Positions 1,941-50,903 of a stretch of 64,000 nt of DNA are shown here, one piece after another (the first letter of the stretch is position 1; every line of letters begins with the position of its first letter). The stretch is from a bacterium (GTDB lineage Bacteria; Verrucomicrobiota; Kiritimatiellia; CAIKKV01; CAITUY01). The stretch spans positions 518 to 64,517 of the forward strand of contig JBAXPK010000007.1 in the NCBI GenBank assembly GCA_037132275.1. Direction: 5' to 3'. A program made the position numbers and the translations under genes. The notes beneath the pieces were generated by a model. That model was not told where the DNA came from. It ran no database searches and saw only the letters and a list, made by a program, of their open reading frames with translations.

Positions 1941-1975
1941 AGCGAAGCCCTTGCGCAAAAGCGCCACGCAAAGGT

Positions 1976-2018
1976 GTAACCACTCCCTAATCCCTGACTA
2001 ACATTTCGGATTCATAGT
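1976..2018 (+). promoter_or_regulatory. Pho-box-like promoter element: three 11-bp-phased CTRAY motifs plus a CATAGT -10-like hexamer
   Basis: GTAAC at 1976, CTAAT at 1987, CTAAC at 1998. Palindrome TGACTA-N14-TAGTCA at 1995-2020. CATAGT at 2013-2018, exactly 15 nt after the proximal CTAA as at the other copies. Confidence 0.45.
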
Positions 2019-2055: not shown

Positions 2056-3438
2056 TTGAAATTTATGAGCCAGACAAACAACAACGAAACAGAAGAGAAA
2101 CGGTTCTCCAAATGGCATACTGCCAGTGCGTGCCTCGGCTTGTGTTTCTTTTGCCTGGTATGGGGGGGGATATCCGTCCAGCATGGGTTTTTCCCTGGGT
2201 ATTTGCTTCGCAACGCCTATGAGGGGGCCAAAGCGGCAAGGGCTAGCTTGCACTATTGGCACATGCGATATAGCGACGACCTCTGGTCGACAAACCGGTT
2301 TTCGCGTAGTGGTGTCACGATTCATGACCCGGCCAGGACGTTTGAGGGCTACACCTTGTATACGTCCGGACACAGTCAGGCAGCGGTGCTGATGGATATG
2401 GGCGGGAAGGTTGTCCATGAATGGAAACTGCCCTATGACCAAATATGGGATTCGTCCGGCGAGGTGAAATATCCCCGCCCTCCCCACCAGGTCTTCTGGT
2501 TCAAGGCGAAGGTCTTTCCGAATGGCGATCTTATGGCCGTTGTGGAAGGAAATGGGGGCACACCCTGGGGCCAGGGAATCATCAAGATAGACCGCGATTC
2601 CCGCCTCATCTGGAAGTACCTGGGCTGTGCGCATCACGACTTCAGCATCGGCGACGACGGACGCGTCTACGGGTTGACGCATGCCATCCGTGAGGAACCC
2701 CTAACTAACCTGCCGCTGAGCTATCCCTGCCTGGAAGATTTTGTCGTGGTGCTGTCGCCGGACGGCAAAAAGGAGCAGCAGGTCTCGATGTTCGAAGCCC
2801 TCGCCAATTCGCGTTACAGGCGGGCTCTGGAAGCGGCGCCGAAAACCCCCTACGGGGAATATCTCCATTGCAACGCGGTTCGCGTGGTTGACAAACAGAT
2901 CGTGCGGAATTTCCCCTTTGCGCATGAGGGGCAGGTATTTGTTTCGATCCGTGAATTCAGCGCCGTGGTGCTTGTTGATCTCAGTAAGCGTTCGGTCGTG
3001 AACGCGCTGATTGGTTCATGGAGGTATCAGCATGATCCGGACTTTCTGGATAACGGCCACGTCATGCTCTTCGATAACTATGGCAACATGGAGGATGGGG
3101 GGATTTCGCGTGTCATCGAGTTTGATCCCCTGACCGGCGGCGTGGTGTGGTCTTACCATGGTACGGATGCCAACCCCCTGAGCAGCGAGAAGCGGTCGAA
3201 CGCCCAGCGGCTGCCCAATGGGAACACGCTCATCACGGAATCGGATTCAGGAAGACTCCTCGAAGTGACGACCCAAGGTGACGTGGTCTGGGAATTCATC
3301 AATCCCGTCAGGGGTGGAAAGAAAGGGGAGCTCATCCCGGTCATCAGCACCGGCGAGCGCATCGCGCCGGAAAGCCTCGATCCGTCGTTCCGCGACACTC
3401 TTGCTTCAAAACAAACTCAAACGAAAGGCTCACCGTGA
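2056..3438 (+). CDS. Aryl-sulfotransferase (ASST)-like beta-propeller protein with N-terminal membrane anchor
   Basis: N-terminal TM (ASACLGLCFFCLVWGGISV). Motifs recalled from ASST/Arylsulfotran_2 proteins: HHDFSIGDDGRVYGL, YLHCNAVRVVD, QHDPDFLDNGHVMLFDNYGN, RLPNGNTLITESDSGRLLEVTTQGDVVWEF. Start is TTG 2056 or ATG 2065. Confidence 0.55.
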   Translation: MKFMSQTNNNETEEKRFSKWHTASACLGLCFFCLVWGGISVQHGFFPGYLLRNAYEGAKAARASLHYWHMRYSDDLWSTNRFSRSGVTIHDPARTFEGYTLYTSGHSQAAVLMDMGGKVVHEWKLPYDQIWDSSGEVKYPRPPHQVFWFKAKVFPNGDLMAVVEGNGGTPWGQGIIKIDRDSRLIWKYLGCAHHDFSIGDDGRVYGLTHAIREEPLTNLPLSYPCLEDFVVVLSPDGKKEQQVSMFEALANSRYRRALEAAPKTPYGEYLHCNAVRVVDKQIVRNFPFAHEGQVFVSIREFSAVVLVDLSKRSVVNALIGSWRYQHDPDFLDNGHVMLFDNYGNMEDGGISRVIEFDPLTGGVVWSYHGTDANPLSSEKRSNAQRLPNGNTLITESDSGRLLEVTTQGDVVWEFINPVRGGKKGELIPVISTGERIAPESLDPSFRDTLASKQTQTKGSP

Positions 3439-3695
3439 ATACACGCATGACCGTATTTTTGTTAGCCATTGTAAGTCTCTTTGGCATTGTGCCTTCGGCC
3501 ATGGCTTATGTCGGACCCGGTGCGGGACTGACGCTGGTCGGATCGTTTATCGGGCTTTGCCTCACCCTGTTGGTGGCTTTGTGGGCTGTCCTTTCGTGGC
3601 CGATTCGCAGACTGCTTAAGCGCAGGGGACGGGGCGCTTCAGGTGGAGAAAAGGCTCCTGAGATGGATCACACACATGACAGCCCCTCTTCTTGA
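3435..3695 (+). CDS. Small two-TM membrane protein
   Basis: Two hydrophobic helices joined by YVGPGAG, followed by a basic tail (RRLLKRRGRG). Overlaps the upstream stop by 4 nt (GTGA). An alternative ATG start lies at 3447. Confidence 0.45.
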   Translation: MNTRMTVFLLAIVSLFGIVPSAMAYVGPGAGLTLVGSFIGLCLTLLVALWAVLSWPIRRLLKRRGRGASGGEKAPEMDHTHDSPSS

Positions 3696-4131
3696 CCTGA
3701 TTGACACGCGTTTGCTGGGATTCCTGCCTGACTTGGCTAAAATCGCGGTGTGGGCCGTGCTGTGCAGCATCATCTCCATGGCACTCTACCGGTGGCTTTC
3801 CCCGCAGAAGCGGCTGGCGGCGGCCAAAGATGACGCCAACCGGACGCGCCTGACGCTTTCCCGCTACGATGGTCCAGGGGACGGGTTGCCCCCGCTCATC
3901 AGGGCATCGTTACTCGCGGCACTCCGGCATATGGGTTTGTGTTTGGGGCCCGCTCTTGTGTCTTCAATTCCCGTGATCGCCATATTCCTATGGATGAACG
4001 CCGTCTACGGCACACCGGCGCGGGACACCCTGTCATTCGGCCCGTCCTGGTTCAGGGCATGGTATGTGCCGTTCAGTGTCGTCATGCTGGCGGCATCACT
4101 GACGATCAAGAAGGTGTGGCGCATTGTGTAG
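3643..4131 (+). CDS. Hypothetical integral membrane protein
   Basis: Three to four hydrophobic segments. Sits in the operon between the ASST-like and sulfotransferase genes. The start is uncertain (ATG 3676 is possible). No family recognised. Confidence 0.4.
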   Translation: MEKRLLRWITHMTAPLLDLIDTRLLGFLPDLAKIAVWAVLCSIISMALYRWLSPQKRLAAAKDDANRTRLTLSRYDGPGDGLPPLIRASLLAALRHMGLCLGPALVSSIPVIAIFLWMNAVYGTPARDTLSFGPSWFRAWYVPFSVVMLAASLTIKKVWRIV

Positions 4132-4155
4132 GCGGGGTCTGCTGGAGTAAGGTTC

Positions 4156-5280
4156 ATGGACAAAACAACACAAGAGAGTTCGGACTTTCAGGTTGACTGG
4201 TTGACAAACCGATTGAGCCAATGGGTCTGGAAGTCGCCGGGGCGTGCTGTTCGGCTGGGGAACCATGAGAGCCGGTGGTTTGCCGATGAATTACAGTCCT
4301 GCCCGGTTCAGAAGCCGGTGTTCATTGCGGGGTTGGCAAGGTCGGGAACCACGATCCTGCTGGAGTTCATGGCGATGCTAGACGGGGTGGCCACCCATCG
4401 ATACCGTGATTTCCCGCTGGTGCATATGCCTATCTGGTGGAACGAGTTCCTGAACCTCACTCCCCGGAAACGCATGGAGCCCGTCGAAAGGAGCCATCGC
4501 GACGGCATTGTGATCACGCCCGAAAGCCCGGAGGCGATGGAAGAGCCCCTCTGGATGAGTTTCTTTCCGCTGGCCCACGACTCGGCGGTCAGCCAGGTGC
4601 TGAATGCGGCCACGGTGAACCCGGGATTTGAAGCGTTTTTCCAAGACCACTTGCGCAAGATCCTGTTCGTGCGCCAGGGTCGCCGCTATGTGTCGAAGGG
4701 CAATTACAACGTCACGCGGCTCGAGTATCTCCTGCGTCTGTTTCCGGACGCACGGTTTGTGGTGCCGGTGCGGGAACCTGCGGGGCACGTGGCTTCACTC
4801 ATCAAGCAGCACCGCATCTTCGGCGAAAATCTTCGAGGCAATCCGCGTGCGCTTGAGTATCTGCGCCGCGTTGGGCACTTCGAATTCGGGCCGGACAGGC
4901 GGGCGATCAATGTGGGGGACACGGTCCTGGCCCGGGAGATTGAAGCGTTGTGGGCCGCCGGCGAAGAGGTGCGTGGTTGGGCCCGATACTGGGCCTCCAT
5001 CCATGGTTTCCTTGCGGGGCGCATGGAATCGGATCCGCTCTTTCGGAAGGCTGTACGACTGGTTCGGTTTGAGGAACTGTGCGAGCGGCCGGCCGCTGAA
5101 CTCAGGAAGATCGCGGAGCATGGTGAGTTTACAGATGCCGCGCGAGGCGCGGACTCTTTCGCGGAACGAATTCGGTTCCCTCGGTACTACGCGCCTTCGT
5201 TCAGTGAAGCCGACGGGATGGCCATTAAGGACGAAACGGCGTCCGTGTTCATGCGACTCATGCGTCTCCAACAACAATGA
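4156..5280 (+). CDS. PAPS-dependent sulfotransferase family protein
   Basis: 5'-phosphosulfate-binding P-loop FIAGLARSGTTILLEFM. A downstream VPVREPAGHVASL segment resembles the 3'-phosphate-binding motif of sulfotransferase-domain proteins. Confidence 0.65.
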   Translation: MDKTTQESSDFQVDWLTNRLSQWVWKSPGRAVRLGNHESRWFADELQSCPVQKPVFIAGLARSGTTILLEFMAMLDGVATHRYRDFPLVHMPIWWNEFLNLTPRKRMEPVERSHRDGIVITPESPEAMEEPLWMSFFPLAHDSAVSQVLNAATVNPGFEAFFQDHLRKILFVRQGRRYVSKGNYNVTRLEYLLRLFPDARFVVPVREPAGHVASLIKQHRIFGENLRGNPRALEYLRRVGHFEFGPDRRAINVGDTVLAREIEALWAAGEEVRGWARYWASIHGFLAGRMESDPLFRKAVRLVRFEELCERPAAELRKIAEHGEFTDAARGADSFAERIRFPRYYAPSFSEADGMAIKDETASVFMRLMRLQQQ

Positions 5281-5293
5281 AAGGGCTCGTATT

Positions 5294-6244
5294 ATGAAGA
5301 ACAGGCAGTTTTATAATGGGATGTCGGTATTACTTGCCGTGGTTTCGCTTCTGGGCGCAGGCTGCGGTAAGCGGCAGACTGCGCCGGAGGCCCGGATCAC
5401 GGTTTCGGGTGCCTGGGCGCTTTACCCGATGATGGTGAAATGGGCGGAAGAATATAGGAAGTCACATCCCGGGATTCAGATCGATATTTCTGCAGGCGGA
5501 GCCGGAAAAGGGATGACGGATGCCTTATCAGGCGCCGCCGATATCGGCATGGTTTCACGGGATATCAATCCCTCCGAAGCGGGTAAGGGGGCATGGTGGG
5601 TGGCGGTGGTCAAGGATGCCGTGATTCCCGTCATGAATGCCTCAAACCCGAACGGCGGCATCCTCGCCAAACGGGGTCTCAAGAAAGAGGAATTTACCGC
5701 CATCTTTGTGAAGGGAAATGTTCAGGATTGGAGTTTTGCGGGCGGCACACCAACTCCGCTTCATGTTTATACTCGATCAGACGCCTGCGGCGCAGCGGAA
5801 ACCTGGGCCAAGTATCTTGGCGCCAAGCAGGAAGACTTGAAGGGAACCGCCGTTTACGGGGATCCCGGCGTGGCCGAAGCCGTGCGCAAAGACGTGTCAG
5901 GCATCGGGTTCAATAATCTGATTTTCGCCTATGACATCAAGAGCGGTCAACCCCTTCCGGGTATATGCGTCATCCCCATCGACAGCAATGGGAACGGCGC
6001 CGTGGATCCCGGGGAGGATTTCTATGGGACCCACAAGGCGGTCATGCAGGCAATTGCTACGGGGCGTTATCCCTCCCCGCCAGCCCGTGATCTGAATCTG
6101 GTGCATCATGGGCCCCCCCCGTCCGGACCTGTTGCCGATTTTATCAAGTGGGTGCTTGCGGAGGGGCAAGCGTTTGTATCCGAAGCCGGCTATATCGCCC
6201 TGCCCGCTGAAATCCTCAACAGCCAGAAGGCAAAGCTGAAATAG
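5294..6244 (+). CDS. pstS: Phosphate ABC transporter substrate-binding lipoprotein PstS
   Basis: Lipobox LLGAGC. PstS-type motifs ITVSGAWALYP, ISAGGAGKGMTDALSGAADIGMVSRDINPSE. ATG 5294 lies 13 nt after the sulfotransferase stop. The longer track ORF from 4628 overlaps the previous gene and is Arg/Ser/Cys-rich. Confidence 0.8.
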   Translation: MKNRQFYNGMSVLLAVVSLLGAGCGKRQTAPEARITVSGAWALYPMMVKWAEEYRKSHPGIQIDISAGGAGKGMTDALSGAADIGMVSRDINPSEAGKGAWWVAVVKDAVIPVMNASNPNGGILAKRGLKKEEFTAIFVKGNVQDWSFAGGTPTPLHVYTRSDACGAAETWAKYLGAKQEDLKGTAVYGDPGVAEAVRKDVSGIGFNNLIFAYDIKSGQPLPGICVIPIDSNGNGAVDPGEDFYGTHKAVMQAIATGRYPSPPARDLNLVHHGPPPSGPVADFIKWVLAEGQAFVSEAGYIALPAEILNSQKAKLK

Positions 6245-6247
6245 GCC

Positions 6248-7150
6248 ATGGATCGTGATTCCATACGACAGGGACTGGATTGCTGGGGCCGCCGAGGCAT
6301 GGTTGCGACGGTGGCGATGTGCATTTTACTCCTACTGCTTATGGCGATGGGCCTGCTGTGGAAATCCTGGCCCATTCTTAGCTCACATTCACTGGCAGGC
6401 CTGTTTCTTTCCAGCGTCTGGAAACCCCATGGAGGGCAGTTCGGATTTCTGGCCTTCATTCTGGGTTCCTTATGCATTACCGGAGTAGCGGTGCTGCTGG
6501 CCGCGCCGGTTTCGTTGTTAACGTCCATCTATCTGTCCGAATATGCCGGACGCCGGATCCGGGCGTTGATGTCGCCCCTGATCGATCTCCTGGCGGGCAT
6601 TCCCTCGGTGGTTTACGGGGTGTGGGGAGTGCTGGTGGTCGTTCCCCTGGTGAAAGATCATCTAGCGCCGGTATTCGGCCGATATTCATCCGGGTATTGC
6701 GTTCTTTCCGCCGGGGTGGTGCTGGCCATCATGATTTTGCCTGTCGTCATTCATGTGGGCCTGGATGTGTTGAAGTCCGTTCCCCAGGGGTTGCGCGAGG
6801 CCTCCCTGTCACTGGGCGCGAATCGGTGGGAAACGGTGAAGCATGTAGTATTGCGGCGTGCGGCGCCGGGCCTGTTGGCCGCCAATGTTTTAGGCGTGTC
6901 GCGGGCCTTTGGCGAGACGATGGCCGTTCTCATGGTGGCGGGGAACGTCGCCGTGACTCCGAAATCCGCATTCGATCCCGCCTACCCGCTACCCGCGCTC
7001 ATTGCCAACAACTACGGCGAGATGATGTCGATCCCGCAGTATGACTCCGCCCTGATGCTGGCGGCGCTCATGCTTTTCGTGGTGGTACTGGGTTTCAATT
7101 TATTGTCGCGCTGGGTTTTTGCCCGTATGGAGTTGCGCATTTCAGGATGA
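6248..7150 (+). CDS. pstC: Phosphate ABC transporter permease PstC
   Basis: Multi-TM permease with an EAA-like loop (GLREASLSLGANRWETVKHVVLRRAAPGL). Lies immediately after pstS. Confidence 0.8.
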   Translation: MDRDSIRQGLDCWGRRGMVATVAMCILLLLLMAMGLLWKSWPILSSHSLAGLFLSSVWKPHGGQFGFLAFILGSLCITGVAVLLAAPVSLLTSIYLSEYAGRRIRALMSPLIDLLAGIPSVVYGVWGVLVVVPLVKDHLAPVFGRYSSGYCVLSAGVVLAIMILPVVIHVGLDVLKSVPQGLREASLSLGANRWETVKHVVLRRAAPGLLAANVLGVSRAFGETMAVLMVAGNVAVTPKSAFDPAYPLPALIANNYGEMMSIPQYDSALMLAALMLFVVVLGFNLLSRWVFARMELRISG

Positions 7151-7154
7151 ACCC

Positions 7155-8003
7155 ATGAGAAAGCAGATTGAAGAAATTGCCGCCAAAATCCTGATGATCG
7201 GAGCCGCCGTGGTGGTGGCCGGGATGGTCGTTTTGATTCTCGGAACCGTGTTATGGCGCGGCCTCCCGGCGTTGAGTTGGGAAATGATCTCGCAGACTCC
7301 GTCCGGCGGTTACTATCTCGGAAAGGGCGGCGGCATTCTCAATGCCATCGTCGGGTCACTTTCGGTGGCCGGTGGCGCAACCCTGCTGTCGCTCGGCCTG
7401 GCTTTGCCAGTGGCGTTGAGCCTGAATGTCTATTTCAAGACCCATTCCCGACTGGCGGGTTGCGTCAGGGGCTCGTTGGATGTGCTGTGGGGTGTGCCCT
7501 CCATTGTCTATGGCGCCTTCGGGTTTGCGTTTATGCTTTGGCTCGGACTCCGCGCTTCCCTCCTGGGGGGGATTATCACCGTGGCTTTGATGATCCTCCC
7601 CATCATGATCCGGGCCATGGATGAAGTGATTCACATGGTTCCGCACGAGATGCTGGAAGCCTCCGATGCCCTGGGTGCCACCCGGTGGGAGGGCGCCTGG
7701 AAGGTAATCCTCCGGCAGGCGCTTCCCGGACTTGCCAGCGCGGCGCTGATCGCCTTCGGGCGGGGGATCGGGGATGCCGCCTCTGTTCTTTTCACGGCGG
7801 GATTTTCGGACCGGATTCCGATGTCACTTGCGGATCCTGCTGCGACCCTGCCGCTGGCCATATTCTTCCAGTTGGGTACCCCGTTCCCGGAGGTTCAGCA
7901 ACGGGGCTATGCTGCGGCGCTGATATTAACGGCCATCGTGCTGACGGCCAGCGCTCTGGCGCGTCTGGTCAGCCATCGGGCGGGACGGTTTGTAATTCGA
8001 TGA
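7155..8003 (+). CDS. pstA: Phosphate ABC transporter permease PstA
   Basis: Multi-TM permease with EASDALGATRWEGAWKVILRQALPGL. ATG 7155 lies 4 nt after the pstC stop. Confidence 0.8.
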   Translation: MRKQIEEIAAKILMIGAAVVVAGMVVLILGTVLWRGLPALSWEMISQTPSGGYYLGKGGGILNAIVGSLSVAGGATLLSLGLALPVALSLNVYFKTHSRLAGCVRGSLDVLWGVPSIVYGAFGFAFMLWLGLRASLLGGIITVALMILPIMIRAMDEVIHMVPHEMLEASDALGATRWEGAWKVILRQALPGLASAALIAFGRGIGDAASVLFTAGFSDRIPMSLADPAATLPLAIFFQLGTPFPEVQQRGYAAALILTAIVLTASALARLVSHRAGRFVIR

Positions 8004-8013
8004 AGGACATACC

Positions 8014-8775
8014 ATGACAGCCAATACCCCTATTGAAGTGAAAGACCTGAATGTGCATTACGGCACGATCCATGCTTTGAAAAATATCCACGTTAGTATC
8101 CCCAATTGCCAGATCACGGCAGTCATCGGCCCCTCGGGGTGCGGTAAGTCTACCTTGTTGCGTTCGTTCAACCGCATGCTCGACACCATGGATGATGTGC
8201 GGGTCACAGGCGGGGTGCTGGTCGACGGTGAGAATATTTTTGCGGCCAATGCGGATGTGCCGCGTCTACGCCGCAAGATGGGACTGCTTTCTCAGCGGCC
8301 GTTTCTCCTGCCTATGTCGATCTATGACAATGTGGCCTACGGGCCGCGCATCCATGGGATCAGCCGCCATTCCGACCTGGATTGCACCGTGGAAAAATAC
8401 CTCCGGATGGCCAACATGTGGGATGAGGTCAAGGATCGTCTTCGCGAGCCCGCTGCAAAGCTGTCGATCGGTCAACAGCAACGGCTCTGCCTGGCGCGGG
8501 GCCTCGCTGTGGAACCCGAGATTATCCTGGCGGACGAGCCCACCTCGGCGCTGGACCCGATTTCAAGCCGTCACATTGAACAACAATTCCGAGAGTTACG
8601 GGCTGACTACACGCTGGTGATGGTGACCCATATTCTTCGGCAGGCCCGTCGCCTGGCCGACTATGTGCTTTTCATGTATCTGGGTGAACTCATCGAGCAC
8701 GGGCCGGCGGCCGAACTGTTTGAGAATCCCCGCGAGGAATTGACGAAGGATTATATCAAGGGAACGATCAGTTAG
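8014..8775 (+). CDS. pstB: Phosphate ABC transporter ATP-binding protein PstB
   Basis: Walker A GPSGCGKST, signature LSIGQQQRLCLARGL, Walker B IILADEPTSALD. PstB-typical N-terminus (VKDLNVHYG) and C-terminus (TKDYIKG). Confidence 0.85.
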   Translation: MTANTPIEVKDLNVHYGTIHALKNIHVSIPNCQITAVIGPSGCGKSTLLRSFNRMLDTMDDVRVTGGVLVDGENIFAANADVPRLRRKMGLLSQRPFLLPMSIYDNVAYGPRIHGISRHSDLDCTVEKYLRMANMWDEVKDRLREPAAKLSIGQQQRLCLARGLAVEPEIILADEPTSALDPISSRHIEQQFRELRADYTLVMVTHILRQARRLADYVLFMYLGELIEHGPAAELFENPREELTKDYIKGTIS

Positions 8776-8786
8776 GAGGCCAGGCC

Positions 8787-9308
8787 ATGGTGAGTAGTAA
8801 GATTCAACCTGCAGTCGTGTGGTTCACCGGATTATCAGGGTCCGGCAAGAGTACCCTTGCTGAGAAGGTGGAGCACGCCCTGAAGATGCGTGGCGTGGAC
8901 ACCGAGATTCTGGATGGCGACCGGGTTCGCGCGGTCTTTCCGAGCATCGGGTTCTCCCTTGAGGAGCGCAACGCGCATATCCGCCGCATGGGCTTCATGG
9001 CGGGTCTCCTTGAGAAACACGGTGTGGTGGTGCTGGCGAGTTTCGTGTCGCCTTATGCAGAGGCCCGCCAGGCGGCGCGGTGGCAATGCCGCAATTTTAT
9101 TGAGGTCTATCTTTCCACCCCCCTCGCCGAATGCGAGCGGCGCGATGTGAAAGGTCTCTACGGCAAGGCGCGCCGGGGCGAGATCTCCAACTTCACCGGA
9201 GTCAGTGATCCGTATGAAGTTCCGGAGAATCCGGATCTGGTTATCGACACCACCGCCATGAGTGTGGAGGAATCTGTTGCCCTGGTTCTGGGGAGATTGC
9301 AGTCATGA
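8787..9308 (+). CDS. cysC: Adenylylsulfate (APS) kinase CysC
   Basis: [56 protein letters not shown]. All canonical APS kinase motifs are retained. Confidence 0.85.
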
Positions 9309-10210
9309 CAATCCATTCCCTGACCCATTTGAAGCAACTGGAAGCCGAGAGCATTCATATCATGCGCGAGGTGGCCGCAGAATTCGAGCGGCCGGTCATG
9401 CTTTACTCGGTCGGGAAAGACTCATCGGTCATGGTGCGGCTGGCCCAGAAGGCCTTTTACCCCGGACGGATTCCCTTTCCACTGATGCATGTGGATACAG
9501 GTTTCAAATTCGGGGAGATGATTGAGTTCCGTGACCGGTTTGTGAAGGAGATCAAGGCGGATCTTATTGTGCATCAGCATGAAAAATCAGCCGACCTGTC
9601 GGTGAATCCCTTTGCCCTCGGAACCCAGAAGTGCTGTGCGATACTTAAGACGCAGGCTCTGGTGGAAGCCATACGCAAACATAAGTTTGACGCCGCTTTC
9701 GGGGGCGCCCGCCGCGAGGAGGAGAAATCGCGGGCCAAGGAGCGGGTGTTCTCCTTTCGGGACGAGCTCGGGCAGTGGGATCCCAAAAACCAGCGTCCGG
9801 AACTGTGGAGCCTCTATAATACCCGGGTCAACACAGGCGAATCCATCCGAGTATTCCCCATCTCCAACTGGACCGAGTTGGATGTCTGGCAATATATCTA
9901 CATGGAAAAGATTCCGGTGGTGCCCATGTACTTTGCGCAGGAGCGCGACATGATTGTGAGGGATGAGCAGTTGATTCCGTTCCAGGAAACCACGCCGCTC
10001 AAACCGGGCGAACACCCCTGCAAAGTGCTGAGTCGATTCCGCACCCTGGGCTGTTATCCCTGTACCGGGGCCATCCGGTCATCGGCGTCAACGGTGGCGG
10101 AAATCATCGAGGAAATGATGGTCGTACGCATCTCCGAACGTTCGACCCGCGTGATTGATCATGACGCCGAGGGCTCGATGGAAATGAAGAAACGGGAAGG
10201 GTATTTCTAG
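9305..10210 (+). CDS. cysD: Sulfate adenylyltransferase subunit 2 CysD
   Basis: [35 protein letters not shown] (PP-loop), [11 protein letters not shown], and the C-terminal KKREGYF typical of CysD. ATGA overlap with cysC. Confidence 0.9.
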
Positions 10211-10211
10211 A

Positions 10212-12143
10212 ATGAATGCGATTGAGGCATTTCTGGCGGAGAATGAGAAGAAGGATCTGCTTCGGTTTTCGACGGCGGGCAGCATTGACGACGGCAAGTC
10301 AACCCTGATCGGCCGTTTACTGCACGACTCAAAGAATGTCTACGAGGATACGCTGGCGTCGATCAAAAAGGCGTCTCGTGAAAAAATGTCGGAGGAACAG
10401 ATCGACCTTGCCTTGCTCACTGACGGTCTTAAGGCAGAACGCGAGCAGGGGATCACCATTGACGTCGCCTACCGCTATTTTTCGACACCGCGCCGGAAAT
10501 TCATCATCGCCGACACGCCCGGACACGAGCAATACACCCGGAATATGGCGACCGGCGCCTCGACCGCCAATCTTTCGGTTGTGCTGGTGGATGCGCGTCA
10601 TGGCATCCTTCCCCAGACGCGGCGCCATGCGTTTATCGCCTCCCTGCTGGGGGTGCCGCACATGATTGTGGCCGTGAACAAAATGGATGCCGTGGACTAT
10701 CGGGAAGACGTCTTTCAGGCGATTCGCGACGAGTTCGCTGAGTTTGCCTCGAAGCTGGGCATCAAGGATCTGCGTTTCATTCCGCTGAGTGCCCTCAAGG
10801 GCGATAACGTCGTCCATCGCAGTGGAAACATGACCTGGTACCGGGGCGAAAGCCTGATGGAAATCCTGGAGAACGTCTACATCGGCAGCGACCATAATCT
10901 CGTGGATCTGCGGTTCCCCATCCAATATGTGGTGCGCCCGGATATGGGCTTCCGCGGCTATGCCGGAGTTGTCACCTCCGGTGTCATCCGTCGGGGGGAT
11001 GAGGTGTTGGCGCTCCCTTCGATGAAAGTCAGCCGGGTCAAATCGATTGTCACCTTTGATGGCGACGTGGAAGAGGCCTGTTCGCCCATGTCGGTAACGG
11101 TCACCCTGGAAGACGAGCGTGATATCAGCCGCGGGGAAATGCTGGTCCGTCCGCATAACCTTCCCAAAATGGACCGGCGTTTTGAAGGCATGGTGGTGTG
11201 GATGGGGGATGCCCCAATGGATCTGAATGCCAGCTATTTCATCAAGCACACCACCCGCCTGACCCGGTGCCGGGTGGACGAAATCCGTTACAAGGTGAAT
11301 GTGAACACCCTGGCCAGAGAGGCCATGACGGGACTCGCCTTGAATGACATTGGCCGGGTTGTCTTCACCGCCAATCAACCCCTGTTCAGTGATTCCTACG
11401 AGAAGAACCGGGGAACCGGCTCATTTATCCTGATTGACCCCGTGACCAACGCCACTGCGGCAGCCGGGATGATCATTGATCGCGAACCAGCGGAACAGCT
11501 TGTTTCCCGCATCACCCCCGGGGTAGGGGCGCACACGATGAGCCGGCATGGCCGCCAGATCGAGGCCGGGGAGCGGGTGGCGCGTTATGGGCAGAAGCCG
11601 GCGACCCTGTGGCTGACCGGTCTGGTGGGATCGGGAAAATCAAGTCTGGCTGGCGCGCTAGAGCGGAAGCTTTTCGACTTGGGCGCCGTCAGCGTTGTCC
11701 TCGATGGTTCGAATGTGCGGTCGGGCCTCAACCGTGAACTGGATTTCACGTCCGAGGGGATGGCCGAACATCTCCGCCGCGTCGCTGAGATGGCTCGGCT
11801 CCTGAACGATGCCGGGTTGGTGGTTATATGCGCCTTTGTTTCCCCTCATGAAAAGGTGCGCCGGCAGGTGGCTGAAATTATTGGAATCGACCGGTTTCTG
11901 GAAGTTCACGTGGATGCGCCCCTTGAGTGGTGCCAGGCTCACGACCACACTGGGTTCTATCAGCGGGCCGAGGTAGGCGAGGTGCGCAACGTGGCGGGCA
12001 TCAGTTTTCCTTATGAAGCGCCGACCACGCCCTCGCTCAGGGTGTCGACGCCGGATATGACGCCTGAAGGTGCTGTATCAATCGTCATGAACCTGCTGCG
12101 TAAACAAGGGATATTCCCGGTCGGTGCTCTCTCAAATGAGTGA
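10212..12143 (+). CDS. cysN: Sulfate adenylyltransferase subunit 1 (CysN GTPase) fused to an APS-kinase-like C-terminal domain
   Basis: GTPase motifs [21 protein letters not shown]. The C-terminal domain starts about 11601 ([15 protein letters not shown]) but has LDGSNVR instead of LDGDNVR, plus other substitutions. Confidence 0.85.
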
Positions 12144-12176
12144 AGTTAATACTTTGCTGGCAGGGGTGATGCCTAA

Positions 12177-12590
12177 TTGAAGATTCCAAACAGCGTGGAA
12201 CGCGTTCTTAAATTTGGCGTGGTCGGGGTCTTGACCTTCGCGCTGGATCTTATTCTTCTTTATGTTTGTATCGACTGGTTGGAATGGAATTACATTATCG
12301 CGACGGGAATCGCGTTCACAATGGCCGTTTCTGTAAACTATTATGGCGACCGGCGCTGGGTGTTCAAAGGCACTCTCAGGTCCATCCGGGCGGGGTATGT
12401 TATTTTCATGGTCATCGGATGCGTGGGCGCGGCCATTGCCATGGTCGGCATGTCCGTCCTCGTGGGGGTTTTCCACATTCATTATTTTGCATCGCGCATC
12501 GCCATTGCGAGCCTGGTGGGCCTGTGGAACTATTTCATGAACCTCTATGTAAACTTTCAGGTGACAGGCAAGCACGGGGAGGCTTCCTGA
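12177..12590 (+). CDS. GtrA-family membrane protein
   Basis: 137 aa with 4 TM segments. FGVVGVLTFALDLILLYV...NYYGDRRWVFK matches the GtrA-like pattern. The TTG start is uncertain. Confidence 0.6.
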   Translation: MKIPNSVERVLKFGVVGVLTFALDLILLYVCIDWLEWNYIIATGIAFTMAVSVNYYGDRRWVFKGTLRSIRAGYVIFMVIGCVGAAIAMVGMSVLVGVFHIHYFASRIAIASLVGLWNYFMNLYVNFQVTGKHGEAS

Positions 12591-12636
12591 ATCTGTTTCC
12601 CGTCCCCGCAGCCCGGGTGTGCCGGCTTGCGAGCAT

Positions 12637-12679
12637 CTAACGTGAGCGTTGTTGTTTCCTAACATAGGGTGTCTATCGT
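12637..12679 (+). promoter_or_regulatory. Promoter-like element: CTAAC-N17-CTAAC-N10-TATCGT
   Basis: CATCTAACG (12634-12642), N10, TGTTTCCTAACA (12653-12664), then TATCGT at 12674-12679. It lies 28 nt upstream of ATG 12707, which has an AAGGAGG RBS. Confidence 0.45.
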
Positions 12680-12706
12680 CTTTCCAAGTTAAGGAGGAAT
12701 GACGAT

Positions 12707-12895
12707 ATGAAATGTTTAAAATGCAACGACGAAGTAGATATTAAGAAGAACGAAATCCCGCCACGTTGGTACGGGCATTACGAGAACGCGAAACTCGCGA
12801 AGCTCATGTGCGTGGAATGCCTTGTGACCCATAAAGAGATATGGGATTTGGTACGGACGGGGTGTGGGGGTGGTAAGCAAGCCCTTTCGGCTTGA
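12707..12895 (+). CDS. Small zinc-ribbon protein (two CxxC pairs)
   Basis: 62 aa with CLKC...CVEC. Strong RBS aaggagg 8 nt upstream. Locally AT-rich codons. Short hairpin caagcc/ggcttg over the stop codon. Confidence 0.5.
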   Translation: MKCLKCNDEVDIKKNEIPPRWYGHYENAKLAKLMCVECLVTHKEIWDLVRTGCGGGKQALSA

Positions 12896-12924
12896 CTGTT
12901 CTCGTCCACCCTGCTGACGAACAT

Positions 12925-12967
12925 CTAACGAGCGGGTCGCTGTTTCCTAACAGGGTTGGCTTATGAT
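12925..12967 (+). promoter_or_regulatory. Promoter-like element, twin of 12637..12679
   Basis: CATCTAACG (12922-12930), N10, TGTTTCCTAACA (12941-12952), then TATGAT at 12962-12967. Identical spacing to the first copy. Confidence 0.45.
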
Positions 12968-13003
12968 GTGGTTTTTGATCGTTTACAAACGGAGCAACAT
13001 ATC

Positions 13004-13330
13004 ATGGCAAAGAAGGCAGTGAAAAGCGCGGTGACGACGCGTGCAACGGTAAAACCGCAACTACCCCGGCGTAAGCGGGTAACATTCCGGTTTCAGGCGA
13101 AAGAAGGAGCCGATGTGCGTGTGGCGGGGAGTTTTAACAACTGGGATCCCAAGGCCCGGCTCCTGAACCCGGCGAAGGGAAACGGCGAGTACGCCAGTGC
13201 GATTCTGCTTCCGGCGGGACGTCACGAATACAAGTTCATCGTGGATGGCCAATGGCTTGGTGATCCGGTCTGTGCTGAGAAGGTTCCGGACGGGCACGGC
13301 GCGATGAATAGCGTGGTTGTGGTCGAGTAG
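13004..13330 (+). CDS. Small CBM48 / AMPK-beta-type glycogen-binding-domain protein
   Basis: VTFRFQAKEGADVRVAGSFNNWDP...YKFIVDGQWLGDP is the classic CBM48 pattern. ATG 13004 has GGAG 8 nt upstream. The track start at 12956 lies upstream of the predicted -10. Confidence 0.7.
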   Translation: MAKKAVKSAVTTRATVKPQLPRRKRVTFRFQAKEGADVRVAGSFNNWDPKARLLNPAKGNGEYASAILLPAGRHEYKFIVDGQWLGDPVCAEKVPDGHGAMNSVVVVE

Positions 13331-14318: not shown

Positions 14319-14378
14319 GCTCAACCCTAGGGGCCGGGCGCGATGCCGGGGCAGTACTGACTAGACCCCAATGAAATC

Positions 14379-14421
14379 CTAATGGTTGTCAAACATTGCT
14401 CTAACGATTGAATGTTATAAT
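14379..14421 (+). promoter_or_regulatory. Promoter-like element: CTAAT-N17-CTAAC-N10-TATAAT
   Basis: CTAAT at 14379, CTAAC at 14401, perfect TATAAT at 14416-14421. The ATG at 14432 is 11 nt after the hexamer and has no SD, so the mRNA is probably leaderless or nearly so. Confidence 0.5.
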
Positions 14422-14431
14422 TCACATCCAT

Positions 14432-17823: not shown

Positions 17824-18923
17824 GCGCCGCCATCGTCGTGGGAATCATGACGCTCTGCCTCGGGGTATTGTTTTTCTGGGCGTTTCGCGTCCTGCCCGGC
17901 GAGCCGTGGCAAATTCTGGCGGTATGGCCGCGCCAGAAGGAGCCTGATGGCACATGGCGCGGTACGAACCTGACTTACTATGGTCTATTCAATGGTCTAG
18001 GATTGGCGGTGGCGGTGGCGGTGACGGTGTTTCTGCTGGGAACCATGCGAATGCCGCTGCCCTATGTGGCGTGGTGTGTCTTTGTTCTCCTGGCGGTCAC
18101 GGTTCCTGCTTCCAAAATTGTCAATCGCATGGTGGAGGGACATTGGCACGGGTTCACCATTGGAGGGGCCTCATTCGTCGGGATGGTGGCGGGCCCCTGG
18201 TTGGTCTGGGGTATTTCCCGCCTGACTCTGTCAGCGGAGGAAGGGGCGATGGCGACGGTGTCTGTGATGGGTGCCATAGCGTGTGCCTATGCGTTGGGTG
18301 AAGGCATCGGGCGGTTAGCCTGCATCAGTTTCGGCTGTTGTTACGGGCGACCGCTGGCGGACTGTCCAGCCTGGCTTTCAAAATTATTCACTCACGGGGC
18401 TTTTGTCTTTGAGGGACGCTTAAAAAAATCCTCTTACGAACACAGGTATGAAGGCAAACGCCTGATTCCTGTGCAGGCCCTGACCGCCATCATCTCCAGC
18501 ATGGCCGGGCTCGTCGGCATGGCGGTATTCCTGGGCGGGCATCCGGTTCTAGCCTATGTGATGCCGGTTGTCGCTACGCAGGTGTGGAGGTTTGTGTCGG
18601 AATTCCTGCGGGCGGATTACCGGGGGGCGGGGCGGATTACTGCCTACCAGGGCATGGCCCTTGCGGGAGCGGCCTATACGGTGGCGCTTGGCCTTCTGTG
18701 GTCCGGCACGCTGGCGCTTACTCCCGATGTGGCTCGCGGCCTGGCGTTGCTATGGACTCCTGGCGCGATTCTATTAATTGAAGCCGTCGCCCTCTTTGTT
18801 GCCATTCGCATGGGCCTCAGTACAGTCACAACGGCCAGAATTCATTTCGGCCTCAGGCAGGATGGCGTGCCACCCGTGTCCCCTGCCTTGCGAACATCTG
18901 ACGGCTCGCTAACTCAGGACTAA
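17820..18923 (+). CDS. Lgt-like (prolipoprotein diacylglyceryl transferase family) polytopic membrane protein
   Basis: About 8 TM segments. GEGIGRLACISFGCCYGRPL resembles the Lgt GRxGxFxNGCCYG motif. ATGA overlap with the psd-like gene. Confidence 0.5.
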   Translation: MSAAIVVGIMTLCLGVLFFWAFRVLPGEPWQILAVWPRQKEPDGTWRGTNLTYYGLFNGLGLAVAVAVTVFLLGTMRMPLPYVAWCVFVLLAVTVPASKIVNRMVEGHWHGFTIGGASFVGMVAGPWLVWGISRLTLSAEEGAMATVSVMGAIACAYALGEGIGRLACISFGCCYGRPLADCPAWLSKLFTHGAFVFEGRLKKSSYEHRYEGKRLIPVQALTAIISSMAGLVGMAVFLGGHPVLAYVMPVVATQVWRFVSEFLRADYRGAGRITAYQGMALAGAAYTVALGLLWSGTLALTPDVARGLALLWTPGAILLIEAVALFVAIRMGLSTVTTARIHFGLRQDGVPPVSPALRTSDGSLTQD

Positions 18924-18940
18924 TCTTTCTGCGGCATAGT
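18898..18940 (+). promoter_or_regulatory. Pho-box-like promoter element containing a 26-bp palindromic unit
   Basis: CTGAC at 18898, CTAAC at 18909, GGACTAATCTT at 18917-18927. Palindrome GGACTA-N14-TAGTCC at 18917-18942. CATAGT at 18935-18940. Confidence 0.5.
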
Positions 18941-18950
18941 CCGCTGATCT

Positions 18951-19703
18951 ATGGCCGGTTCCCATAACCCTATCATGTCGGCGGGAGTCCTTCTCCTGAC
19001 TCTCTGCCTCCTTCCTGTCCACGCGGCCCATCCTCGCTTCTCTATCCCATCCCCAATCGCGCAGCCCTCTCCACTCACGAATAGGCCATCATTAATACCT
19101 TCCCCTTCCTTCTCTCGCTATTCCATCATCCTGACCCGGATGCCATTTGGAAACGAGGCGCCCTCTGTCGCCACTGCGGCCCGGGCCGAGGCCGCGGACA
19201 TTCCGGCTGAAAGTTTCTCCAAGACCCTTACGCTGTGCGCGATTACCCGAAGCCATGACACCGGCAAAGTCCAGGTTGGGCTTGTGGACCATGAGACCCG
19301 AAAAAGTTACTTCCTTGGCGAGGGTGATAAAGAAGATGGCCTGGAACTGAAGGAGGCCGATTATGTGGAGGAGAAGGCGTTACTCGCGATGGGGGAGAAG
19401 GAAGTGTGGTTGACGATGAAGGCGGGGGCGATGAAGACCCCTACGGGTGTCCGCAATCCATTCGGTTTTGAGAGCGCAACGTCTTCTCCACCGCCAAGCC
19501 CCGATGAGTCCGGAACCATGACCTTAGCGGCTATGAGCGGGGAGGCGGAGCCTGCCGCCGACAGTTTTAAGAAGCTCGTTATGAGTTCTCAAATGGAACT
19601 GCTTCGCGCCCGTGGCGCCAAGGGCCCGCCCTTGCCCATGGCCCTCACGCCAGAAATGGATGATCAACTCGTCAAGGAAGGCGTCCTCGCCCAGACGGAG
19701 TAG
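18951..19703 (+). CDS. Hypothetical secreted Pro/Ser-rich protein
   Basis: Signal peptide (SAGVLLLTLCLLPVHAAHP) followed by a low-complexity P/S region. ATG 18951 lies 11 nt after CATAGT, so the mRNA may be leaderless; the alternative start is ATG 18975. Confidence 0.45.
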   Translation: MAGSHNPIMSAGVLLLTLCLLPVHAAHPRFSIPSPIAQPSPLTNRPSLIPSPSFSRYSIILTRMPFGNEAPSVATAARAEAADIPAESFSKTLTLCAITRSHDTGKVQVGLVDHETRKSYFLGEGDKEDGLELKEADYVEEKALLAMGEKEVWLTMKAGAMKTPTGVRNPFGFESATSSPPPSPDESGTMTLAAMSGEAEPAADSFKKLVMSSQMELLRARGAKGPPLPMALTPEMDDQLVKEGVLAQTE

Positions 19704-19747
19704 GACAGAACGACATGGCGGGCGAGTATGAGCGCCCTTACAAAGTT

Positions 19748-19790
19748 CTGACCGCAGACTAATTCGAGACTAATCATTCTGCGGCATAGT
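19748..19790 (+). promoter_or_regulatory. Pho-box-like promoter element upstream of the phoB-like gene
   Basis: CTGAC at 19748. Tandem 11-mers AGACTAATTCG (19756-19766) and AGACTAATCAT (19767-19777). Palindrome AGACTA-N14-TAGTCT at 19767-19792. CATAGT at 19785-19790. Confidence 0.55.
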
Positions 19791-19843
19791 CTGACCCAGA
19801 TTATATCCCGGGCGCTGTTCCCGTTCGCAGGGACGACTATTCT

Positions 19844-20542
19844 ATGGCTGTTGCTCAGAAACATATACTGATTGTTGAAGACGAGGATGATATCCTTGAG
19901 TTGGAGCGCTACAATCTGACGCGGGAGGGCTTCAGCGTGGCCGCAGTTTCGCGCGGCGAGGATACCCTCAAGGCGGTGACCCAGAAGAGGCCGGATCTCA
20001 TTCTCCTGGATCTCATGCTGCCGGGTATGAACGGGCTTGAAGTGTGCCAGAAACTCAAAGCAGATCCCTCAACCGCCGACATCCCGATCATCATGGTCAC
20101 AGCCAAAGGCGAGGAATCGGACATCATTGTGGGGCTGGAACTCGGGGCGGACGATTATGTGAACAAGCCCTTCAGCATCAAAGTGCTCATTTCCCGCATC
20201 CGTGTTGCGCTGCGCCGTCAGCCGATCAAAGCTTATGACCAGAAGCATGGCCTGCGGGTCGGTGACGTGGAGATCAATCCCAGCCGTTTTCAGGTGAAGA
20301 TCAAGGGAAAACCCATTGTGGGGCTCACGGTGACAGAGTTCCACCTGCTTCACTTTCTTGCCAGCCGTTCAGGCCGTGTCATGAACCGGCAACAGATCCT
20401 GGATGCTGTGCGCGGTGAGGATATTGCCGTGACTGAGCGGGCGGTGGATGTCCAGATGGTCGGCTTACGCAAGAAGCTCGGCTCCGCCGCAGATTACATT
20501 GAGGCCGTGCGTGGAGTGGGATACCGCTTCAGGGACGGCTGA
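19844..20542 (+). CDS. phoB: OmpR/PhoB-family response regulator (PhoB-like)
   Basis: REC domain (ILIVEDEDD...DLILLDLMLPGMNG...VTAKGEESDIIVGLELGADDYVNKPFS). Winged-helix domain (TEFHLLHFL, RAVDVQMVGLRKKL, VRGVGYRF). Close motif-by-motif to E. coli PhoB. No adjacent kinase. Confidence 0.75.
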   Translation: MAVAQKHILIVEDEDDILELERYNLTREGFSVAAVSRGEDTLKAVTQKRPDLILLDLMLPGMNGLEVCQKLKADPSTADIPIIMVTAKGEESDIIVGLELGADDYVNKPFSIKVLISRIRVALRRQPIKAYDQKHGLRVGDVEINPSRFQVKIKGKPIVGLTVTEFHLLHFLASRSGRVMNRQQILDAVRGEDIAVTERAVDVQMVGLRKKLGSAADYIEAVRGVGYRFRDG

Positions 20543-23048: not shown

Positions 23049-23110
23049 GTCTACAAAAGGGTGGGAGGGCGTCGTGATATAAAGAATGCAAACCCAAAAC
23101 ACACACGGGT

Positions 23111-23142
23111 TTAATATCAGGCTAACAATCGGAACCTATAAT
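23111..23142 (+). promoter_or_regulatory. Promoter-like element: TTAAT-N6-CTAAC-N10-TATAAT
   Basis: TTAAT at 23111, AGGCTAACAAT at 23119-23129, perfect TATAAT at 23137-23142. Same register as the 1995, 18917 and 19767 copies. Lies 29 nt upstream of ATG 23171. Confidence 0.45.
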
Positions 23143-41162: not shown

Positions 41163-42395
41163 ATGATGGCCCCCGGGGTGGTTCCGGAAATCACAAGTGA
41201 TGCCCTGCATCGGGATTATCCCGCCCTGACGGTGGTCGAGACCCGCTGCCTGCGGGATGTTGCCTGTGGCATTTATCCCTGTTACTTCCGGCGTCTGTCC
41301 GATCGGCTCAGGGTCGCTTCCTCGGCGGTGGCGCTTATTGCCGATATCGGCGATATCCAAATCAATCCGGCATTTCAGCCGCGTGAATACCTGCTTGGTG
41401 ACAATGCCCGGCAACATTTCATTCATGGAACCGCGCGGTTGCCGCAGGCCCTGAAGGATTCCGCCAAGCGGCGGCTGCCCACCGCGCTACTCCGCCGCCT
41501 GTCGAAGGATCGGTTCTGGTATGAATCATGGGCGACGGTTGATGCCCGGGTGTTCAAGCTCAAGCCCTTCGAGCGCGTTACGCCGGAAGGCTCAGCTGAT
41601 ATGTTCAAGCCGGATTTCTCACTCCGCAACGCGGATGCTCTGGTCGAAGGGGTGGCCTGTCATCTGGAGCGTTTCGTCCGGGACATGGAGGAGCATTATC
41701 CCGAGCATGATCACATCATGATGATCGGCGGCAAGGACAGCCAGCTTCTCGCCCTGATCCCCAAGCGGCGTCCGGAACGGTGGCATGTGTTCAGCGCCGC
41801 CCCGAATAGCAGTCTCGTTTTGCAATGGCTGGCGTGGAATAATGTGGAGGCGGCAGAGGTATTCAGCGACGACGGGCGGAACGTGGAGACGCAGAGCGAA
41901 ACGCAACGCAAGATCGTTTGCAGCGATCTCTACTCGGATCCTCGACACATGCGCTGGCTACCGGCACTGCGCCGCATTGCCAGGAGCTTCACCTCCCGAT
42001 GTTTTTTTTGGTCCGGCTCCGCCGCCGATGCGCTGCACGTCGGACACTCGTTTCATCAGCGCTATGCGTCCCGGGATCCCGTGGAATTCTTCGATATCCA
42101 TCTAAAGCGCGTGCCGTGCCTCGTCGGAAACTACCATCAGGTGGTCAAGAACTTTACGGGCTGCCCGTTGCTTTGCCCTTATCAGACGGATGAAATCTGG
42201 CGCGAGGTTTACTCCCACCATGGCCCTGCGGTCATTCCCGCCGGTGTGGATCTTCGCCCCCGTATCGGCGAACGGCTGGCAGGGCGGCCCATCCGCTGGC
42301 TGGACACCAATCCCGGACCTGAGCCCTACCGGTATGAGCAGCCGTTCAATGCCCGTGAAATCTATTTAAAACGATTGAGGAGTATTCGTTCTTAA
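41163..42395 (+). CDS. Hypothetical cytoplasmic protein with a PP-loop-like motif
   Basis: 410 aa with no TM. HIMMIGGKDSQLLALIP resembles the SGGxDS ATP-pyrophosphatase loop. Otherwise unrecognised. Confidence 0.4.
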   Translation: MMAPGVVPEITSDALHRDYPALTVVETRCLRDVACGIYPCYFRRLSDRLRVASSAVALIADIGDIQINPAFQPREYLLGDNARQHFIHGTARLPQALKDSAKRRLPTALLRRLSKDRFWYESWATVDARVFKLKPFERVTPEGSADMFKPDFSLRNADALVEGVACHLERFVRDMEEHYPEHDHIMMIGGKDSQLLALIPKRRPERWHVFSAAPNSSLVLQWLAWNNVEAAEVFSDDGRNVETQSETQRKIVCSDLYSDPRHMRWLPALRRIARSFTSRCFFWSGSAADALHVGHSFHQRYASRDPVEFFDIHLKRVPCLVGNYHQVVKNFTGCPLLCPYQTDEIWREVYSHHGPAVIPAGVDLRPRIGERLAGRPIRWLDTNPGPEPYRYEQPFNAREIYLKRLRSIRS

Positions 42396-42509
42396 TCGAA
42401 TCCTGACGTTCTGCTTGTTGTCGCCTGACAGGTTGTTGGCAGGCTACAGCATGAAAAAGGTGTGACAGGCCCTGGGGGGATTGTGGCGTTTGGCGGGGGT
42501 ACTCATTCG

Positions 42510-50839: not shown

Positions 50840-50903
50840 AATTGTGTCCCCCTGAAATTGGTTGAGTGAAGCAACTGAATGGCAACATCATCCCGAAAAA
50901 CGG

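Follow-up and report, generated by a model that had tools for sequence, protein, structure and literature searches.

A twin motif upstream of two small genes in a Kiritimatiellia contig is likely a pair of Pho-box-type promoters

A 64-kb stretch of DNA from a bacterium of the class Kiritimatiellia (GenBank assembly GCA_037132275.1, contig JBAXPK010000007.1, positions 518 to 64,517; hereafter the window, meaning the whole 64,000 nucleotides analysed) carries a twin motif, CATCTAACG-N10-TGTTTCCTAACA, upstream of two adjacent small genes, one encoding a 62-amino-acid (62-aa) zinc-ribbon protein and the other a 108-aa protein with a CBM48 domain. We consider it likely that the two copies of this motif mark two Pho-box-type, activator-dependent promoters (P1 and P2), which a PhoB-type regulator would be expected to bind, with phosphate limitation as the most probable signal. 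This reading builds on the architecture of the motif, its enrichment in the window, its positional bias, its conservation, and its presence at the phoB, porin, and pstS promoters of relatives, all of which we observed directly.

The motif occurs exactly twice in the window, both times on the forward strand, as CATCTAACGTGAGCGTTGTTGTTTCCTAACA at 12634-12664 (copy 1) and as CATCTAACGAGCGGGTCGCTGTTTCCTAACA at 12922-12952 (copy 2), with a distance of 288 bp between them. When up to three mismatches were tolerated, there were still only two matches in 64 kb compared to 0.00 in 100 dinucleotide shuffles; neither CATCTAACG nor TGTTTCCTAACA was unusual in the window when the arms were searched separately. 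The CTAA cores within each copy are 22 bp apart, and each copy is followed at an equal offset by a -10-like hexamer of the form TAnnnT, TATCGT for copy 1 and TATGAT for copy 2. The initial annotation had described the coordinates, identical arms, distance, hexamers, CTAA spacing, and AAGGAGG ribosome-binding site (RBS) of the 62-aa gene as we found them, but some of its wording needs to be amended. The 62-aa gene, which it called unusually AT-rich, does deviate in that direction, although only mildly (GC content of 0.43-0.51 vs. about 0.58 around it), and the spacers, which it called unrelated, agree at 5 of 10 positions. Since the spacers are alike to this extent and the similarity between the copies continues beyond the arms on either side (GCTnnCGAnCATCTAACG ... 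CCTAACAnGGTTGnC), the copies appear to stem from an old duplication. Searched with a profile of the full 59-nt module (nhmmer), the window yielded both copies and a marginal third-best match at 18887 (E = 0.21). The likeness that had been pointed out between the 5′ arm and GAACATCTGACG, upstream of an "18917 element," is real; GAACATCTGACG, at 18892, is unit 2 of the array that starts at 18887.

Each copy belongs to an array in which four CT[AG]A[CT] pentamers follow one another with an 11-bp period, and the arms correspond to the second and fourth of these units. Both at P1 and at P2, these two units are perfect CTAAC, while units 1 and 3 are weak; the other arrays of the window have 3-5 clear units (Table 1). 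The last pentamer ends 10 nt before TATCGT, TATGAT, TATAAT, or CATAGT, without a -35 element, and a scan with the sigma-70 consensus found nothing promoter-like at either P1 or P2. In the window, the spaced pair CT[AG]AC-N17-CT[AG]A[CT] has 6 matches compared to 0.58 expected, all on the forward strand and just upstream of forward-strand genes, and at several of these sites a third pentamer sits exactly midway, e.g., CTGAC-N6-CTAAC-N6-CTAAT at 18898 and 19748. Pentamer pairs at 11-bp spacing number 7 compared to 1.2 expected, and triplets 2 compared to 0. An array model that required four units in 11-bp phase, the last of them perfect and followed 10 nt later by nAnnnT (at +15), returned 9 sites in the window compared to 0.05 in shuffles, each in promoter position and in the orientation of the gene, a comparison that is partly circular since the model was refined on the sites of this window. 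When the hexamer requirement was dropped, we found 13 distinct arrays, of which 11 lie in promoter regions (intergenic DNA makes up only about 5% of the window, as tallied from tables of open reading frames [ORFs]) and 9 carry nAnnnT at +15, where chance would give about 1/16. A 13-position two-block consensus showed no enrichment in the window (17 matches vs. 34 in shuffles), and the regulon emerged only after the core was relaxed to CT[AG]A[CT] with the 11-bp and 22-bp phase imposed.

Two of the arrays stand unusually close to their genes. The 792-aa gene and the 250-aa gene have exactly 10 nt from hexamer to ATG and no Shine-Dalgarno sequence, as do their counterparts at the related locus L003 (arrays at 11613 and 16132; loci from other records are given here as L numbers). 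This arrangement suggests that leaderless or near-leaderless mRNAs may arise at 14416-14434 and 18935-18953, and it fits the hexamer as a true -10 with very short leaders.

Since 11-bp direct repeats that end about 10 bp before a -10 and lack a -35 are the signature of OmpR/PhoB-type winged-helix activators, we propose a PhoB-type protein as the binder. An OmpR/PhoB-family response regulator is encoded about 7 kb downstream of the twin motif, and its best match in the PDB is RegX3, a mycobacterial phosphate regulator. The regulator gene has its own array at 19737, which suggests that it may be autoregulated. Homologues at 72% and 79% identity (L021 and L025) have equivalent arrays upstream of the regulator gene, are likewise not accompanied by a kinase gene, and have neighbors that include the same phosphatidylserine decarboxylase-like (PSD-like) and LGT-like genes, a CHAD protein, an OlsF-like acyltransferase, and a monogalactosyldiacylglycerol (MGDG) synthase. 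The last three kinds of neighbors are located at L025 6390-9868 and L021 4100-5491. The functions of OlsF-like acyltransferases, MGDG synthases, and CHAD proteins are linked to phosphorus-free lipids and polyphosphate, which are typical of phosphate starvation.

More distant homologues, at 62-64% identity, are encoded by the first gene of phoB-phoR-porin-pstS-pstC-pstA-pstB-phoU clusters (L023, L027, and L029) and, in L028, by that of a phoB-phoR pair; among these records, one carries the label Kiritimatiellia bacterium and another the label Verrucomicrobia bacterium. CTAAC-N6-CTAAC occurs upstream of phoB in all four loci (L023, L027, L028, and L029). Upstream of the porin gene, we found CTAAC-N6-CTAAT-N10-TATTAT (L029), TTAAC-N6-CTAAC-N10-TATCGG (L023), and GTAAC-N6-TTAAC-N10-TATTGC (L027), and upstream of pstS, four phased units in both L027 (TTAAC-CTAAC-CTGAC-CTAAC) and L029 (TTAAT-TTAAC-CTAAC-CTAAC). 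The recognition helix, VTERAVDVQMVGLRKKLG, is nearly identical in the window regulator and its homologues. Core Pho genes thus stand behind arrays both in the window (the regulator gene and an operon with pstSCAB-like genes) and in relatives (phoB, the porin-pst operon, and pstS). Together, the arrays at phoB, porin, and pstS of relatives and the near-identical recognition helix suggest that the repeat is best read as the Pho box of this clade.

P1 lies upstream of the 62-aa gene in every lineage found, i.e., the window, L011/L016 (metagenome-assembled genome [MAG] ELA450), L003-L009 (two MAGs), L010, and L013. While third-codon identity across these lineages is only 59-73%, AGCATCTAAC and GTTGTTTCCTAACA(C/T)AGG..GTCTATCGT are invariant bar one base, and TATCGT lies inside GTCTATCGT in all five lineages; the variable parts of P1 are the 8 nt between the conserved blocks and the stretch preceding the RBS. 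Judged from these comparisons, the P1 arms are under purifying selection. The arrays at 14368 and 18887 (in L003 and L016) and at 19737 (in L003) show the same kind of footprint, with invariant pentamers and variable spacers. Among the predicted targets, the 62-aa gene has the most strictly conserved box, and its product is lineage-restricted: a search of 5.8 billion proteins gave 3 clusters at 90% identity, to which a metagenome scan added the lineage L013/L019. The protein has no Pfam or NCBIfam match, and its AlphaFold2 model, built from a 3-sequence alignment, has a pLDDT of 58. The neighbors of P1 and the 62-aa gene vary, with GtrA mostly upstream (cysNC in L010, which lacks GtrA) and the CBM48 gene, a 312-aa gene, or a convergent glycosyltransferase family 2 gene (L013) downstream. 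Since the neighbors vary in this way, P1 and the 62-aa gene form one unit.

On the other hand, P2 is confined to the window lineage and its close relative L011/L016 (ELA450), and the pairing of the zinc-ribbon and CBM48 genes, raised in the initial annotation as something that relatives might conserve, is not kept. The CBM48 gene is absent in L010 and L013, and in L003 it is preceded by an unrelated 59-bp region in which copy 2 is absent. The L011/L016 version of the CBM48 gene has lost about 315 bp, with a 3′ remnant left behind, and an intact P2 now reads into the 312-aa gene. The deletion junction, at L011 1975-2030 and L016 ~8960-9020 (corresponding to window 12967-13283), joins P2 to the last ~45 nt of the CBM48 gene. 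L010 keeps only a remnant of the left part of P2, cctgCTGACaaacatCCGAC. These comparisons indicate that small genes are gained and lost freely here, and P1 and the 62-aa gene stay together. A recent segmental duplication was also considered as the source of the arm identity and rejected, as the spacers and flanks have diverged and the trace of P2 left in L010 points to an old origin of P2.

When 185,579 species genomes and 241 million metagenome records were scanned for the exact pattern, the only matches were the orthologous loci and four unrelated AT-rich sequences (L014, L015, L017, and L020), which are consistent with chance. One of these, L017 (~295-460, minus strand), is an unrelated, AT-rich array of repeats from another organism, in which words like TTTTCTAAC recur many times a short distance apart.

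From these observations, we infer that a regulator binds the arrays and activates rather than represses transcription, and likewise the start sites and the phosphate signal, as follows. A phosphorylated OmpR/PhoB-family regulator would bind the four units head-to-tail as two dimers on one face of the helix, replace the missing -35 contact, and recruit RNA polymerase, with transcription predicted to start about 7 nt past the hexamer (Table 1). The likely binder is the regulator encoded in the window, or a PhoB paralogue with the same recognition helix, and the signal is most likely phosphate limitation. The 62-aa gene would have P1 as its ancestral promoter, which in L003 probably drives the CBM48 gene too. 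P2, as an old duplicate of P1, would drive the CBM48 gene, the 312-aa gene, and perhaps further genes as an internal promoter, and the next array, at 14368, would serve the lipid-gene operon.

Several findings weigh against this interpretation. The best NCBIfam match of the regulator is PhoB (TIGR02154), at 237.6 bits and below the cutoff of 296.2. Its gene is an orphan with no adjacent kinase gene or phoR, and a separate canonical phoBR pair may exist elsewhere in the genome. The PhoU gene of the window (53800-54453) has no clear array, and among the predicted targets there are many envelope or polysaccharide genes in place of the classical Pho genes. Units 1 and 3 of P1 and P2 are poor matches to the unit. 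Around weak unit 3 of P1, GTTGTTTC is conserved in all P1 orthologues, P2 shares TGTTTC, and the kinase promoter has TTGTTGT at the same place; a simple Pho-box model does not account for the conservation of GTTGTTTC. Lastly, there is the circularity of the enrichment figures already mentioned, and the independent support for the array model is that from other genomes.

The strongest alternative keeps the array architecture as proposed and has the orphan regulator, as a PhoB-derived paralogue of the OmpR family, run an envelope, sulfated-polysaccharide, and lipid island on a non-phosphate signal. The lack of an adjacent kinase and the score below the PhoB equivalog cutoff agree with it, as do targets that are mostly envelope or exopolysaccharide (EPS) genes, a TonB receptor, and a hybrid kinase, and homologues at 72-79% identity that are orphans in similar contexts while the canonical ones are only 62-64% identical. 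However, canonical phoBR-pst clusters have the same recognition helix and the same DNA motif, the targets include a pst-like transporter, and the close homologues adjoin genes with phosphate-starvation functions, which makes this alternative unlikely in our view. A different account, which takes up the shared operator/promoter of the initial annotation, is a sigma-70 promoter (-35 TTGTTT or CTGTTT, 16-bp spacer, -10 TATCGT or TATGAT) under a bipartite operator for a dedicated regulator that co-regulates only the two tiny genes. What stands of this account is that both genes have promoter modules of the same design, with a fixed TAnnnT and conserved arms; a weak -35-like TTGTTT (P1) or CTGTTT (P2) does lie 16 bp from the hexamer, the arms exceed pentamer length and are identical in both copies, and GTTGTTTCC is conserved in all P1 orthologues. 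The modules are neither bipartite nor private, however. The same CTRAY register and hexamer recur at 7 further promoters of the window, copy 2 is not tied to the CBM48 gene, and no separate dedicated regulon is visible, as the public genome and metagenome collections hold no exact extra copy beyond the orthologous loci. We therefore regard an operator specific to the two small genes as very unlikely.

The hexamer itself speaks against an extracytoplasmic function (ECF) sigma-factor promoter, in which the arms would be the -35 (TCTAAC) and the -10 (CCTAACA), with starts near 12671 and 12959. An AAC-containing upstream element with 15-16 nt between elements resembles ECF promoter geometry, and in that case the start-codon region could pair with the downstream box in a 5′ hairpin. 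A sigma factor would leave unexplained the 3-5 units at 11-bp spacing elsewhere and the TAnnnT hexamer at a fixed downstream offset in 9 of 13 arrays, and the two targets with only 10 nt from hexamer to ATG fit the hexamer as the -10. No sigma-factor family was found among the roughly 35 window proteins scanned, a set that did not include most genes between 27 and 50 kb, and we hold an ECF promoter to be highly improbable. Least probable of all is that the conserved block belongs to an RNA leader that folds as a riboswitch or attenuator, or that it is a piece of a dispersed repeat. Alternative short stems can be drawn (TGTT with AACA, and TCTATCGTC with GACGATATGA), but Rfam gave no match, whether at the gathering threshold or at E ≤ 10, and the folds predicted for five orthologous leaders were not significant (z-scores between -1.7 and +0.6) and differed from one leader to another. 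As for a dispersed repeat, which the initial annotation had named among the findings that would overturn its own model, the exact-pattern scans gave only orthologous loci and four chance-like matches. A palindromic operator of the LexA or another type (TGTT-N4-AACA) was rejected, as none of the other arrays contains the palindrome; nor is TGTT-N4-AACA known to fit the LexA motif of Verrucomicrobia, which is 14 bp long.

Separately, the hexamer segment can pair with its own start-codon region, UCUAUCGUC with GACGAUAUGA at P1 (12672-12710) and UUAUGAUGUG with CAUAUCAUGG at P2 (12961-13007), and the changes in L003 and L010 preserve this pairing via G-U pairs. Under the promoter model, only transcripts that read through from upstream could form such a stem, and in these it would cover the RBS and the start codon.

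Table 1. Arrays, predicted promoter elements, and genes of the window (positions count from its first nucleotide)
Feature	Position	Strand	Remarks
P1 array	12626..12663	+	CTTGC 12626, CTAAC 12637, GTTGT 12648, CTAAC 12659; holds copy 1
P1 -10-like hexamer TATCGT	12674..12679	+	10 nt past last unit; predicted transcription start near 12686
62-aa CxxC...CxxC gene	12707..12895	+	RBS AAGGAGG at 12691-12697
P2 array	12914..12951	+	CTGAC 12914, CTAAC 12925, GTCGC 12936, CTAAC 12947; holds copy 2
P2 -10-like hexamer TATGAT	12962..12967	+	predicted transcription start near 12974
108-aa CBM48/AMPK1_CBM gene (glycogen-binding-type)	13004..13330	+	AMPK1_CBM 3.3e-16, also CBM_48
Array CACGC-GTAAC-CTAAT-CTAAC, N10, CATAGT	1965..2018	+	upstream of operon 2056-12590
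Operon	2056..12590	+	arylsulfotransferase, sulfotransferase, pstSCAB-like genes, cysC, cysD, cysNC, GtrA; continuous
pstS-like, pstC, pstA, pstB	5294..8775	+	inside operon of 1965 array; NCBIfam
Five-unit array CTGAC, CCAAT, CTAAT, CAAAC, CTAAC, N10, TATAAT	14357..14421	+	model match at 14368; upstream of 792-aa gene
792-aa gene, then PSD-like and LGT-like genes	ATG 14432	+	behind 14368 array
Array CTTGC-CTGAC-CTAAC-CTAAT, N10, CATAGT	18887..18940	+	upstream of 250-aa gene (18951); includes GAACATCTGACG and the "18917 element"
Array CTTAC-CTGAC-CTAAT-CTAAT, N10, CATAGT	19737..19790	+	upstream of response-regulator gene
OmpR/PhoB-family response regulator (receiver + winged helix)	19844..20542	+	Pfam; candidate array binder
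Array CAAAC-CACAC-TTAAT-CTAAC, N10, TATAAT	23089..23142	+	upstream of tetratricopeptide repeat gene (23171) and TonB-dependent receptor gene
Array TTAAT-CTGAC-CTTGT-CTGAC, N10, CAGGCT	42392..42445	+	upstream of hybrid histidine kinase gene; unit 3 shares TTGTTGT with P1
Array CAGAC-ATACC-CTAAT-CTAAC, N10, GATGAT	50887..50940	-	upstream of EPS priming sugar-transferase gene (50839 to 50129)

Besides the arrays in Table 1, two further intergenic four-unit arrays have no TAnnnT at the standard offset, one at 20654-20710, upstream of a Beta_helix_4 gene (20903), and one at 34940-34995, upstream of the gene at 35014; the L003 orthologue of the Beta_helix_4 gene is preceded by CTAAT-N17-CTAAT. Three of the arrays contain an inverted repeat, (G)GACTA-N14-TAGTC(C), made up of the promoter-proximal unit and the hexamer region, at 18917-18942, 19767-19792, and 1996-2019; it may be a hairpin, an inverted half-site, or a coincidence. 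The first of these is the "18917 element" of the initial annotation. The hexamer, CATAGTC, is the reverse complement of the unit-like GACTATG.

Within the operon behind the 1965 array, only PstC scores above its NCBIfam cutoff (274 bits vs. 196), while PstA (184 vs. 193), PstB (331 vs. 343), and the PstS-family protein (94 vs. 206) are below theirs. Since the PstS-like binding protein is so far below its cutoff, the substrate of the transporter could be phosphate or sulfate. A separate promoter for the pst genes at 3439-3777 was rejected, as this stretch, with 92% identity to L003, codes for a small membrane ORF and is not intergenic. The ORF in question, at 3435-3695 between the arylsulfotransferase gene and the gene that follows, encodes a hydrophobic 86-aa product, and the nucleotides of 3430-3790 are 92% identical to L003, which suggests a conserved small membrane protein of the kind easily missed by simple gene lists.

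The mechanism that we propose is a textbook one, that of a Pho-box-type response-regulator array, and it is the consensus and the regulon that are apparently undescribed in this lineage; in the literature searched, we found no published Pho box for its Kiritimatiellia or Verrucomicrobia relatives. The candidate consensus, (C/T)T(A/G)A(C/T) every 11 bp and ending 10 nt before the -10, would serve a little-studied, mostly uncultured group of the Planctomycetes-Verrucomicrobia-Chlamydiae (PVC) superphylum. An isolated twin motif thereby becomes a testable regulon that predicts phosphate-responsive genes, among them the sulfation operon in which the pst-like transporter is embedded, the lipid genes, and the tiny orphan gene of the zinc-ribbon protein, and the consensus would allow Pho regulons to be predicted from Kiritimatiellia MAGs of phosphorus-limited lakes. 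The value of these findings lies in annotation and ecology rather than in new concepts. More speculatively, a phosphate-starvation regulon may have expanded over an envelope island of about 50 kb, in which PhoB would co-induce the operon for PAPS synthesis and sulfotransferases with the pst-type transporter fused into it, the PSD-like and LGT-like lipid genes, EPS priming, the TonB receptor, and the hybrid kinase, and the 62-aa protein could be a new small effector or regulator. We regard this expansion as possible but doubtful; if true, phosphate would be replaced by sulfate and phosphorus-free lipids in the envelope.

Among known systems, the PHO boxes of Streptomyces PhoP are described as 11-nt direct repeat units, with well conserved core units, weaker accessory units, and variable array length (PMC2275107). 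The combination of strong core units with weaker accessory units resembles the window arrays, whereas the unit itself, GTTCACC, differs. The cyanobacterial SphR box consists of CTTAACCT repeats (PMC1906773). The PhoP box of Bacillus subtilis has the consensus TT(A/T/C)ACA in repeats. Like the window arrays, SphR and PhoP boxes have at least 3 tandem units with an 11-bp period, and their cores are very similar to that of the window (TTAAC/TTAACA compared to CTAAC/CCTAACA); TTAAC variants occur in L023, L027, and L029. Unlike SphR and PhoP boxes, the window arrays belong to another phylum (the relatives are labelled Kiritimatiellia or Verrucomicrobia) and prefer C at the first position of the unit. 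In the Pho box of Escherichia coli, tandem repeats recur every 11 bp and lie 10 bp upstream of a -10 of the form TAN3T/A (PMC1906773; also PMC4415409). At pstS and phoA, as in the window, 11-bp direct repeats about 10 bp before a TAN3T-type -10 stand in for the -35. The window differs from E. coli in its unit (CT[A/G]A[C/T] rather than CTGTCAT), in having 4-5 units, in the alternation of strong and weak units at P1 and P2, and in the lack of an adjacent phoR. The recognition helix of E. coli PhoB presumably also differs from that of the window regulator at base-contacting positions. As in E. coli, the regulator gene and the pst genes would belong to the regulon.

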